Positions 42,905 to 53,567 of a stretch of DNA of 64,000 bases are shown one piece after another. The position numbers and the translations under genes were made by a program. Position 1 is the first letter of the stretch. Each line of letters starts with the position of its first letter. The stretch is taken from the NCBI GenBank assembly GCA_019058245.1, contig JAHPZJ010000013.1, forward strand, positions 137,166 through 201,165, in the 5' to 3' direction. The notes under the pieces are model-generated. The model did not search any database. It was not told the origin of the DNA and saw only the letters and a list, made by a program, of their open reading frames with translations. The DNA comes from Promethearchaeota archaeon. GTDB taxonomy: Archaea; Asgardarchaeota; Lokiarchaeia; Sigyniarchaeales; SOKP01.

Positions 42905-43141
42905 TTATTTTACAGCTTCAAAATAAATATACCATTGTTCATCATCATCAATGAATTCTGTTCCCAAATGTTTATGTTTAGTTTTTGCTAAATCACGTGG
43001 AACAGATTCACTTGCCGGTTTGTAATCTGTTATTACTTTTAAAACAGTTCCTGGTCTCATTTTCATGAGTTGTTTTTTGGTTTTTAAAGCAGGAACAGGA
43101 CATACCGACCCGCAGACATTTAATTCCATATCATATTTCAT
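42905..43141 (-). CDS. tusA: TusA-family sulfur carrier
   Basis: GSVCPVP, VLKVITD. Confidence 0.88.
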   Translation of the reverse strand: MKYDMELNVCGSVCPVPALKTKKQLMKMRPGTVLKVITDYKPASESVPRDLAKTKHKHLGTEFIDDDEQWYIYFEAVK

Positions 43142-43181
43142 TTTATTTACCTCATTACATTATTATTTTAATTTTTTAATT

Positions 43182-45650
43182 TTAATCACATATAATCGAA
43201 AATATTGGTTCCTCCATCTTAGGTTCAGATTTCATCTCTAATTCCATTAATTGAACTAAACGGAGTGCTTCATACCTTGCTTTCTTAGGATCGAGACCTG
43301 TTTGGTTTACGATCTCTGTAATAGTACTAGGACCTTGAAGTGATATATAGTTTAAGACTTGTTGTCTTGGAGTTTTTTCAAATTTCATCAATTCACGTTT
43401 AGTTTTCAGGTTAATAGCATCTTTCAAAGCTTCCTCGTCAACTTTTCCTTGTTCGAATAAACCTTTTTTAATAGCATCTTCAACAAGCTTTTTGCCTCGT
43501 TCTGTCCATACTAACACTGTAGTATAGCCTTCTTTCGAACCTACCTCACCAGCAGTAAGATCTGAATATATGGCAGGGAAATCTTGACAATGAGAACAGA
43601 AATGATTACAACTTAGACATCTTCGAGCTTCTTGTAAAGCCATTTCTTCATTAAACATCTGATCAATTTCATCAAAATTCCAATTAATCTCTTCAGTTGC
43701 TGCGTCTAAAGTTTCTGGTTTCAGAGAATAATCTTTTGGAGGTTTCTTAGGGCCTGTAAAAAATGATTTATCTATCTTATATCTTCCTTCCATCAAATTC
43801 TCTCCCTTTAAATATCTATCAATAGAAATTGCTGCTTCTTTTCCATGAGCAATTGCAGCAATAGCTACAGCTTTAGAATTACTAATAATATCTCCACCAG
43901 CAAAAACTCCAGGAATATTAGTTTCAAACGTTATTTCATTTACTTTAATTCTATTTCGCTCTTTTTCTAATTCATTATTTGTTGCAACATCTATCTGTTC
44001 GAAATCTACGGCCTGACCGACTGCTATTACAATGGAATCAACAATTATTTTATAATCCGATCCTTCAATTTTATTTAATGGTCTCCTTCCATTCTTATCG
44101 GGATTACCCCATTCAATATTATAACAATTTAAAACTAATTTTTCATCTCTATCCTGAGTAATTTTAGAAGTGGAAGTCGTGAAGTGAAAATTTATAAACT
44201 CCATTTCATTTTCAGGAATATCTCTTAAGACCAATTCAAGTTGTTCTTTTGACATGATATCAACAAGATGAACTTTTTCAGCACCTAGTCTAAGAGCCGT
44301 TTGAGCAACATCAACTGCAACTGCCCCTCCTCCAATTATGCCTAAAGTTTTACCTTTAAATTCTTCTTTATTTTCCCAGTATCGATATTTTCTATCCATC
44401 AGGAAATGAATTGCCACATGCACATTTGGTAAATTTTCACCTTCTAAGTGTAAAGTACGAGGTTTATATTGTCCAGTAGCAATAAATATAGCCTCAAATC
44501 CTTCATTATTCAAATCTTTAATAGTCATCTCAGGACCCAATGGTTTATTTAGTTTTACTTCGACACCAGAATCTATGATTCTACCTACATCATAATCTAG
44601 TACATAATTAGGTAATCTAAATTGTGGTACACCAAATCTTAGCATTCCTCCAATTTGATCTGTCTTTTCAAATATTGTAGGGGCATAACCCTTTCTCCTT
44701 AAAAAATATGCCGCTGTTAATCCCGCTGGTCCGGATCCAATAATTGCTATTTTTTTAGCATTTTTAGGTAATTTGGCGTTTACTTTTGCTCTATTTTTAG
44801 CACTTTCAATTTCCCATTCAGTAACAAATTTTTTTAATTCACGAATCGCAACAGGATGATCATCTCCAATTAATGTACAACCATGTTCACACTCATTTGT
44901 ACAAATTCTTCCACATATAGAGGGAAGTGGATTGTTTTCTCTAATTAAGTCTACAGCATCTTGATATTTGCCTTGACGTATTAATGAAATATAGCCTTGA
45001 GCATTAACACCAGAAGGACAGCCATTGCAACATGGAGAACAAACTAAGCCTTTATCAGTTTGTTCTGTTCTCATTTGGGAACTACAAAATAAACCAATTT
45101 TTAAAATTTCTCTATTCATTTCTTCTTCAAGATCAGCAGCTCCACGCATTTCACATGGTACACCTACAATACCAATTGGATCAAATGTTTTCCCTGTAAG
45201 TTCTACTAATCGTTTTAGGACACCAGATCTACCATAAATAACACCAGCTTTTTGGATTACTTCATTAGGATCTGACACAATCTCGGCTGCAGGCTTCTCA
45301 TCTTCTTCTTGAACCATTACAACCTCTTTAATAGATTTACTTCCTAACAATTCTTTAACAAAAGTAGTTACAAATCCTCCACTTGAAGCTTTCTTTAAAA
45401 TATCTGGATCTTTACTTCTTAACGAATAAATCGCAAAGGGTTGCTCCTTTTTAAATTTTTTCTGGATTACTTGAGGACAATTTTGATAACATTTTCCACA
45501 ATCTTGCCCATCTCTTTCTAATATACAATAGTCTTTTAAAGTAGGACGTCTTAGATCCATTTCAATATGTTTACATGAACCAGCACATAATCCACATCCT
45601 TGACATAGACCGGCATCTATAATTTCTTGTCTTAATAATTCAAAACTCAT
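43182..45650 (-). CDS. FrhB-like F420-binding subunit with inserted GltD/NfnB-like flavoprotein module and C-terminal wHTH
   Basis: CQGCGLCAGSC, SSGGFVT, VGVPCE, IGLFC; then NPLPSICGRIC, GSGPAG, GGGAVAVD, FAGGD; then CSHCQDF...SDLTAGEVGS...TERG. Confidence 0.85.
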   Translation of the reverse strand: MSFELLRQEIIDAGLCQGCGLCAGSCKHIEMDLRRPTLKDYCILERDGQDCGKCYQNCPQVIQKKFKKEQPFAIYSLRSKDPDILKKASSGGFVTTFVKELLGSKSIKEVVMVQEEDEKPAAEIVSDPNEVIQKAGVIYGRSGVLKRLVELTGKTFDPIGIVGVPCEMRGAADLEEEMNREILKIGLFCSSQMRTEQTDKGLVCSPCCNGCPSGVNAQGYISLIRQGKYQDAVDLIRENNPLPSICGRICTNECEHGCTLIGDDHPVAIRELKKFVTEWEIESAKNRAKVNAKLPKNAKKIAIIGSGPAGLTAAYFLRRKGYAPTIFEKTDQIGGMLRFGVPQFRLPNYVLDYDVGRIIDSGVEVKLNKPLGPEMTIKDLNNEGFEAIFIATGQYKPRTLHLEGENLPNVHVAIHFLMDRKYRYWENKEEFKGKTLGIIGGGAVAVDVAQTALRLGAEKVHLVDIMSKEQLELVLRDIPENEMEFINFHFTTSTSKITQDRDEKLVLNCYNIEWGNPDKNGRRPLNKIEGSDYKIIVDSIVIAVGQAVDFEQIDVATNNELEKERNRIKVNEITFETNIPGVFAGGDIISNSKAVAIAAIAHGKEAAISIDRYLKGENLMEGRYKIDKSFFTGPKKPPKDYSLKPETLDAATEEINWNFDEIDQMFNEEMALQEARRCLSCNHFCSHCQDFPAIYSDLTAGEVGSKEGYTTVLVWTERGKKLVEDAIKKGLFEQGKVDEEALKDAINLKTKRELMKFEKTPRQQVLNYISLQGPSTITEIVNQTGLDPKKARYEALRLVQLMELEMKSEPKMEEPIFSIICD

Positions 45651-52839: not shown

Positions 52840-52962
52840 ATGATATCATTTTTGATTATGAATGATAGTCATTATAGATCAAAAATATAATATACTATTT
52901 AAATAATAGTTTTTTTTTCTATAATCATATCATTTATTAATAAATAAAACTATATGATCATA
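52840..52962. promoter_or_regulatory. Divergent promoter with ATGA..TCAT palindromes
   Basis: ATGATATCAT 52840-52849, AATGATAGTCATT 52861-52873, TATGATCATA 52953-52962. Confidence 0.5.
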
Positions 52963-53099
52963 AGTTAGTAGTAAAAAAAATTATATATTAAAACTACGAT
53001 ATTAAAAATAGAACATATTACTTTTTAATGAAAGTAAGAAACTTATAAATTATAAACAGTTATAGCAGAACTTGAAAAATTACTAATAGGATTGCTTTT

Positions 53100-53567
53100 A
53101 TGGTATCAACAAATGGAACTCTTGATGAGATAGATCGACAAATTCTTGAGTTATTACAAGATGATGCAAAATTAACTATTAGAGAAATTGCTCATCAAAC
53201 AAAGAAGAGTGCTACTGCTATAAGAGCACGTATTCAACGACTTGAGAAAGAATTGATAAAAAAATATGTAGCGCTAATCGATTGCCGTCAATTAGGATAT
53301 CGTGAAATGGTAATGGCATCACTGAGAGTAAATGCAACAAATCCATTAGAGGACGTTAAAAACGAAATTGAAAAGATGGAAAAAATAAAATATGCCTATG
53401 TTGTCACAGGAGAGTATCCTTTATTTATTATGGCAAAATGTTTAGATCATTCAGATTCTATGGGTCTTATAGAAACACTTCGCAACCTTCCTGGAGTTGA
53501 GGAAGTTAAAACTGAGATTGTGTTAGACCGAATTAAAGAAGATCATTCTATTATTATCCCTGAATAA
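53100..53567 (+). CDS. Lrp/AsnC transcriptional regulator
   Basis: LDEIDRQILELLQDDA HTH; VTGEY; PGVEEVKT. Confidence 0.93.
   Translation: MVSTNGTLDEIDRQILELLQDDAKLTIREIAHQTKKSATAIRARIQRLEKELIKKYVALIDCRQLGYREMVMASLRVNATNPLEDVKNEIEKMEKIKYAYVVTGEYPLFIMAKCLDHSDSMGLIETLRNLPGVEEVKTEIVLDRIKEDHSIIIPE

Follow-up and report, generated by a model that had tools for sequence, protein, structure and literature searches.

A sulfur-carrier-linked heterodisulfide reductase cluster with a degenerate hydrogenase arm in Promethearchaeota

In the ElpABC-HdrABC complex of Methanothermobacter marburgensis, a nickel-free arm containing a dead relic of FdhA (truncated ElpA) is combined with an FrhB-family flavoprotein and an MvhD homologue, and F420H2 and CoM-S-S-CoB are used (PMC12350162). 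Subunits of the heterodisulfide reductase (Hdr) family are also tied to sulfur carriers: in sHdr systems, TusA receives sulfur from DsrE and pulls down sHdrB/C (PMC11094781), and the 2025 preprint of Nobs et al. proposed that an Asgard Hdr fed by a live group 3c hydrogenase acts on TusA/DsrE persulfides (10.1101/2025.07.22.663070). Lokiarchaeia possess many Hdr paralogs but make no methane, and models of eukaryote origin depend on how Asgard archaea dispose of electrons. Here, we describe a 12-gene cluster of sulfur-carrier, Hdr and hydrogenase-derived genes in a 64,000-nt stretch of DNA (the window) from Promethearchaeota archaeon (assembly GCA_019058245.1, contig JAHPZJ010000013.1, 137,166–201,165, forward strand). 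Coordinates are window positions, and the genome containing the window is labelled G000.

The cluster reads tusA-dsrE-dsrF-dsrH-dsrE2-hdrC-hdrB-hdrA-mvhD-mvhG*-frhB::gltD-tusA (42905–52806, minus strand; Table 1). The open reading frame (ORF) listing and family scans confirmed that all 12 genes of the initial annotation are real, and Pfam confirmed the Lrp/AsnC gene from which they diverge. The most unusual product is MvhG*, a 413-aa protein in which MvhG is fused to a degenerate, Cys-free piece of a hydrogenase large subunit of ~150 residues. In an AlphaFold model built from a 113-row alignment (pLDDT, the per-residue confidence score, 92; a 28-row alignment gave 57 and was discarded), residues 1–259 match 5ODC_E (Z 21.5, root-mean-square deviation (rmsd) 2.5 over 242 residues), and the 12 cysteines of three [4Fe-4S] clusters are kept. 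With hhalign, residues 265–325 matched the nickel-binding segment at the N-terminus of real large subunits with no gaps (P 94 %, E 1e-7, against E 0.23 for a reversed control), with G286 and H289 replacing the nickel-ligand L1 cysteines and no L2 motif; 62 of 70 stubs lack Cys entirely. A stub profile ranked the two true NiFe large subunits of G000 first and second of 11,413 ORFs (top non-self), and the stub is about as conserved as the MvhG part. Structural matches to large-subunit-family chains that reach residue 413 (Z 8.5–10.1, rmsd 3.6–6.2) are supportive, not decisive, and the likeness of the stub's terminal beta-hairpin to large-subunit termini was not significant.

The earlier statement that mvhA is missing is therefore correct in that the cluster contains no intact mvhA, but a large-subunit remnant is fused to MvhG, and two intact large subunits lie elsewhere in the genome. 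Because the latter are both present on contig C13, an MvhA encoded in trans might complete a standard H2-dependent Mvh-Hdr complex, as the initial annotation had allowed. However, each of these large subunits adjoins its own small-subunit gene, MvhG* is already fused to an N-terminal large-subunit segment and a dedicated flavoprotein input is co-encoded, leaving this scenario a very slim chance of being correct. We consider it highly probable that the donor arm is nickel-free and flavin-fed; annotation pipelines, which call MvhG* a hydrogenase subunit, are misleading on this point.

The putative input protein (822 aa) is not a tandem fusion; rather, a GltD-like domain (approximately residues 195–690, window ~43581–45068) is inserted within FrhB. 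In canonical FrhB, a domain of ~55 residues lines the F420 channel (PMC3930138), and the insert occupies exactly the position of this domain, which is intact in the copy from the non-Asgard Methermicoccaceae, reduced to 17 residues in f31 (a distant second Asgard family) and replaced in Lokiarchaeia. At three Lokiarchaeia loci, the insert has been lost secondarily, with both of its ends retained. It is most similar to NfnA (P. furiosus NfnABC), but here and in every relative except L129, Asp/Glu stands where the YRR motif would be. Among Rossmann-fold enzymes, the YRR motif is typical of NADP(H) enzymes and Asp/Glu of NAD(H) enzymes. We detected cofD in G000 and its genus; of the six family-f2 genomes with the cluster, five yielded no cofD, among them the complete genomes of MK-D1 and L. 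ossiferum. Given the channel-domain states across lineages and the distribution of cofD, F420H2 was probably the ancestral donor, and the insert motif makes NADH the likely donor in this cluster. Thus, the suggestion of an F420H2- or NADH-linked complex probably holds for NADH, while F420H2 is unlikely here, given the replaced channel domain and the failure to find cofD in the cultured carriers. A further G000 ORF (C17:82196-84964, plus strand) encodes a 922-aa HdrC-like/GltD-like protein that is 55 % identical to the insert and carries the same NAD(H)-type motif; the insertion may have come from such a protein.

In Harpocratesius and, independently, in the archaeal, non-Asgard L205 lineage, the cassette consists of a ferredoxin and a winged helix only. 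These reduced adaptors measure 126–142 aa and retain the winged helix (L074:6365-6814, minus strand; L205:9199-9579, plus strand). That two lineages shrank the cassette while retaining MvhG*, TusA and DsrE is what would be expected if the carriers acted on the arm instead of on HdrB, with the exposed proximal [4Fe-4S] cluster of MvhG* as the sulfur-redox site, and the MBS complex provides a precedent for a nickel-less hydrogenase module that reduces sulfur (PMC7684303). The proximal motif of MvhG*, however, has canonical CxxC spacing and four cysteines, as opposed to the three-Cys cluster of MBS, and we regard this explanation as very unlikely.

A scan of species genomes returned 73 loci in Promethearchaeota, including those of P. 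syntrophicum MK-D1, Ca. L. ossiferum, Ca. Harpocratesius and Ca. Sigynarchaeum; as the genomes are related, these counts are not independent. The run from tusA1 to mvhD is complete in 38/38 Promethearchaeia loci with enough upstream DNA and tusA2 is present in 61/62 with enough downstream DNA, so the gene order is not due to chance. In MK-D1 and L. ossiferum, the Lrp gene lies within the run. A profile of the distinctive C-terminal half of MvhG* matched 79 of the 400 genomes scanned from this phylum, most of them members of the taxonomic order to which the window belongs; seven belong to f31, where the gene order is dsrE-hdrCBA-mvhD-mvhG*-frhB with tusA alongside in rearranged order (three with dsrEFH downstream). 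Methermicoccaceae possess dsrE-dsrE-hdrCBA-mvhD-mvhG*-frhB-tusA, and the L205 lineage possesses a divergent hdrD-like gene and dsrE-hdrA-mvhD-mvhG*-adaptor-tusA-tusA::dsrE. The link between tus/dsr and hdr genes is therefore conserved across Asgard archaea and beyond, through four different gene orders in four lineages, with hdrA-mvhD-mvhG* plus TusA and DsrE as the invariant core. Mean identity is 90 % for TusA2, 85–88 % for the Hdr subunits and 60–71 % for TusA1 and DsrEFH.

Family scores, PDB matches, HdrA scores and the HdrB tree agree that the Hdr subunits are of the methanogen type and not the sHdr type, as first annotated. HdrA matches 5ODC_A with 638 bits (E 1e-190) versus 143 bits to the shorter match 6TJR_A (349 aa), which we take to be sHdrA; it keeps the Glu and Lys next to the bifurcating FAD, presumably in the same roles at the bifurcation site as in 5ODC. 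In HdrB, both CCG domains and the full set of ten cluster cysteines are retained, and the protein scores 369.9 against TIGR03288 (cut-off 345.15). In a quick IQ-TREE phylogeny (midpoint root; references chosen as best hits, leaving out sHdr and class II), the cluster copies from Lokiarchaeia, f31 and Methermicoccaceae form one clade (SH-aLRT branch support 98); its sister group is class I methanogen HdrB, and the other Asgard paralogs fall elsewhere. The cluster contains no lbpA or other lipoate-binding protein gene, in line with the initial annotation; the GcvH-family genes of G000 are unlinked (contigs C30 and C14).

The hdrC gene has no ATG but is intact, beginning with ACG (50835–50837, minus strand) behind an AGGTGA motif. 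Among 33 relatives that share its N-terminus, the start codon is ATG in 17, ACG in 15 and ATA in one; as 15 of the 33 have ACG at the same codon, it is not a sequencing error. Some further relatives also apparently lack an ATG in hdrC. Such a recurring non-canonical start could serve as a translational throttle on HdrC.

Both TusA proteins keep the CPxP motif, and the cysteines of TusA1 (C16), TusA2 (C14), DsrE (C79) and DsrE2 (C105) are all kept and invariant in relatives. By analogy with sHdr systems, TusA2 may be the terminal sulfur carrier, and we lean towards carrier-bound sulfur as the HdrB substrate. In keeping with this, searches of G000 and three complete relatives detected no ComA, McrA, DsrC or siroheme sulfite reductase. 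A complex prediction of HdrB, HdrC and TusA2 gave a score of 0.02 and no interface answer and is evidence neither way. Alternatively, the carriers might serve only tRNA thiolation or cofactor synthesis, as TusA and TusBCD do in E. coli (PMC11094781), with incidental linkage to hdr. This is highly improbable: a third, separate TusA sits between ThiF- and ThiI-like genes and suits a biosynthetic role, so those of the cluster are not needed for biosynthesis; no DsrC/TusE was detected in these genomes; and the linkage survives rearrangement in four lineages. One consistent difference from methanogen HdrB is at position 53, near the CoM-sulfonate site: the cluster proteins have Arg/Lys, whereas Gly occupies this position in 114/116 methanogen-like sequences and in each of the five solved structures. 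The loss of Arg240, which we take to be the CoB phosphate ligand in 5ODR, was considered as a sign of a changed substrate (Thr245 here) and rejected, as 100/116 methanogen-like HdrB have Val at this position.

Gene content, conservation, kept and lost ligands, the NAD(H)-type motif and phylogeny were observed directly, and from them we infer the complex assembly, electron order, substrate and direction of an NADH-linked, nickel-free Hdr acting reductively on TusA/DsrE-bound sulfur, a full model to which we give an even chance. NADH would reduce the GltD-like insert at its FAD and Fe-S clusters, from which electrons would pass to the FrhB cluster and N-terminal ferredoxin domain, then to the three [4Fe-4S] clusters of MvhG*, the shape of which would be held by the dead large-subunit stub, and on through the FAD of MvhD/HdrA and HdrC to the non-cubane clusters of HdrB. 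There, a persulfide on TusA2, loaded by DsrEFH, DsrE2 and TusA1, or a TusA-DsrE disulfide would be cleaved and HS- released. Such a complex may provide a fermenting Asgard archaeon with an H2-independent sulfur electron sink or, alternatively, a route for sulfane-sulfur detoxification or assimilation.

Several points weigh against this model. Regarding the energetics, the potentials of NADH and ferredoxin are -320 mV and -420 mV, respectively (PMC5861303). Bifurcation with NADH thus demands an acceptor above approximately -220 mV, compared with -300 mV for F420H2 (-360 mV). Since free sulfane sulfur lies at approximately -270 mV, NADH-driven bifurcation onto a persulfide is thermodynamically doubtful; the NADH form would bifurcate only with a more positive protein-bound bond and would otherwise run unbifurcated or in reverse, while the F420 ancestors could bifurcate onto persulfide. 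In the reverse (confurcating) direction, reduced ferredoxin and sulfide or a carrier thiol would reduce NAD+, yielding carrier sulfane sulfur for biosynthesis or oxidising sulfur as in sHdr. Energetics favour this provided that the potential of the carrier couple lies close to -270 mV (PMC5861303 values together with the sulfane potential that we assumed), and TusA/DsrE are oxidative with Hdr-like enzymes in sHdr systems (PMC11094781). Nevertheless, the cluster has no LbpA or sHdr-type subunits, extra NADH suits a fermenter poorly and F420-type ancestors would permit the reductive direction, and we consider the reverse reaction improbable.

The HdrB pocket raises a second difficulty. Of the CoM/CoB contacts listed in PMC13261682, R14 (R18 here), G46, G198 and F233 are kept and R201 is replaced by K206; the Methermicoccaceae HdrB keeps all three pocket arginines, and the exchange of Gly for Arg53 also occurs in some unlinked Asgard paralogs. 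As most of the pocket is kept, a small-molecule disulfide fits too: the same nickel-free, NADH-linked complex could reduce a CoM-S-S-CoB analogue, with the Tus/Dsr proteins supplying sulfur to make that thiol or to assemble or repair the non-cubane clusters. The sister relationship with class I methanogen HdrB and the acceptance of analogue disulfides by Hdr (PMC13261682) also point this way. On the other hand, ComA and McrA (alternative CoM routes were not searched) were not found in G000 or three complete relatives, although the completeness of G000 (76 %) limits its genome-wide absences. Furthermore, no thiol-biosynthesis or Suf/Isc genes accompany the cluster in any lineage examined, and at least seven other hdrB copies in G000 (which has eight hdrB in total, alongside more than 15 hdrA-like ORFs) have no adjoining carriers. 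On this evidence, the small-molecule alternative is unlikely.

If the reductive reading on carrier-bound sulfur is extended to all lineages, the Lokiarchaeia, second Asgard family and Methermicoccaceae complexes might represent a distinct, old Hdr class, in which a domesticated nickel-free hydrogenase acts as a universal connector that accepts F420H2, NADH or a bare ferredoxin adaptor as interchangeable inputs and bifurcation proceeds to ferredoxin and a sulfur bond on a dedicated TusA. We offer this as a tentative idea that has less in its favour than against it; if true, Asgard archaea would have an H2-independent, energy-conserving sulfur sink.

Table 1. Features of the cluster and its regulator, in window coordinates
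Feature	Position	Strand	Basis
Lrp/AsnC regulator	53100..53567	+	Pfam; divergent here, adjacent in most loci
TusA1, CPxP, C16	52573..52806	-	PF01206; C16 invariant 22/22
DsrE/TusD-like, C79	52175..52543	-	PF02635; C79 invariant 23/23
DsrF/TusC-like	51801..52169	-	PF02635; TIGR03010 below cut-off
DsrH/TusB-like	51443..51784	-	PF04077
DsrE2-family carrier, C105	50897..51331	-	PF13686; C105 invariant 25/25
HdrC, ACG start	50280..50837	-	ORF calls and start codons of relatives
HdrB, two CCG non-cubane sites, Arg53	49360..50277	-	TIGR03288 above cut-off; best PDB matches methanogen HdrB
HdrA, methanogen-type	47323..49359	-	E 1e-190 to 5ODC_A
MvhD [2Fe-2S] connector	46878..47345	-	PF02662
MvhG part of MvhG*, residues 1-259, 12 Fe-S cysteines	46112..46888	-	Fold match to 5ODC_E; conserved cysteines
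Fused NiFe large-subunit remnant, residues 260-413 of MvhG*	45647..46111	-	hhalign and genome profile ranking
Input cassette, ferredoxin-FrhB(N)-GltD/NfnA-like insert-FrhB(C)-winged helix	43182..45650	-	Domain scans, relatives
TusA2, C14	42905..43141	-	90 % mean identity, most conserved gene of the cluster

A promoter scan with a bacterial-type consensus returned matches at chance level. In an MK-D1 RNA run, a single flat contig spans the cluster and its flanks and may originate from DNA. Contigs of 90–95 % identity in a sediment metatranscriptome cover approximately tusA1 to tusA2 and almost none of the flanks, at most a weak hint of cluster expression. Beyond the cluster, the window contains a 414-aa ORF without a Pfam match (38763–40007, minus strand).

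Other carrier and Hdr genes were encountered in these genomes. A second dsrEFH triplet (L188:7616-8744; G000 C8:69615-70743), 38–47 % identical and with no hdr nearby, is followed downstream by three tandem ORFs of ~570 aa that resemble one another. MK-D1 encodes an 829-aa NADH oxidoreductase-rhodanese-TusA-DsrE2 fusion (L194:7048-9537, minus strand) that resembles persulfide reductases and may provide a parallel sulfur-reducing route. In MK-D1 and L. ossiferum, tusA-dsrE-like genes are followed by what appear by eye to be a cysteine desulfurase and a NifU/IscU-like gene (L192:7606-10500, L195:7739-10460). Downstream of a second hdrCBA-mvhD-ferredoxin run, MK-D1 carries a GcvH-like domain fused to a Rab/Ras-type small GTPase (L186:13156-14127, minus strand; 323 aa), and GcvH-family ORFs of 309–316 aa are also present in genomes G055 and G044. 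Finally, hdrA and mvhD paralogs of G000 are split by in-frame stops at matching positions (C13:36378-38564, C17:88744-90865, C28:244032-246428), as would be expected for putative selenocysteine forms.

Several known systems share parts of this architecture. The MvhAGD-HdrABC and VhuAGD-HdrABC complexes of class I methanogens (5ODC, 8RVU, 9SFI) have homologous HdrA, HdrB, HdrC, MvhD and MvhG, the cluster ligands of which are all kept here; in contrast, the large subunit here is a Cys-free stub on MvhG without the four NiFe-binding cysteines, a flavoprotein input is added, sulfur carriers are co-encoded and no CoM (ComA) or Mcr was found. The FlxABCD-HdrABC system is NADH-fed, as proposed here, and would act on a protein disulfide, with DsrC as its proposed acceptor; here, the MvhD homologue is the only Flx subunit present and DsrC was not found. 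Unlike the MBS-type sulfane reductase, the arm has CxxC and four Cys at its proximal cluster, and the cluster includes no membrane subunits. The sHdr-LbpA systems (PMC11094781, PMC6067878) also tie Hdr-family subunits to TusA/DsrE, whereas the present cluster has methanogen-type HdrA/B, MvhD, DsrEFH, a single HdrB/C set and no LbpA.

The Nerearchaeum proposal (group 3c hydrogenase-Hdr with TsuA/TusA/DsrE; 10.1101/2025.07.22.663070) advances the same hypothesis of an Asgard Hdr reducing TusA/DsrE-bound persulfides; however, its hydrogenase is live, and it matches a different MK-D1 locus with a distant HdrB clade (L187). At such true hydrogenase-Hdr loci (L187:8652-15514 in MK-D1, L191:5529-12757 in G003), tusA-yeeE(TsuA)-dsrE-dsrF are found, in MK-D1 beside mvhG-hdrCB-mvhA. 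These loci represent another linkage of Hdr to carriers, independent of the first; no YeeE was detected in G000. In their account of H2 production, Imachi et al. (PMC7015854) name MvhADG-HdrABC; the passages searched make no mention of the present cluster. We found no description of the MvhG-stub fusion in the literature covered, which excludes subscription journals, and as far as searched the cluster is undescribed in its present form, a variant of Hdr complexes.

Elp-Hdr is the closest working analogue. Both have an arm, nickel-free in Elp and very probably so here, made of a dead relic, an FrhB-family flavoprotein and an MvhD homologue, but the relic here is hydrogenase-derived, the input is swappable and of the NAD(H) type, the carriers are attached and the F420H2-oxidising FrhB domain is intact only in the Methermicoccaceae copy. 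The cluster offers a candidate substrate (C14 of TusA2) and a candidate donor (NADH) for an Asgard Hdr, and its presence in the cultured strains MK-D1 and L. ossiferum makes the question testable. After Elp, it is the second independent case in which a dead enzyme has been turned into the donor arm of an Hdr.

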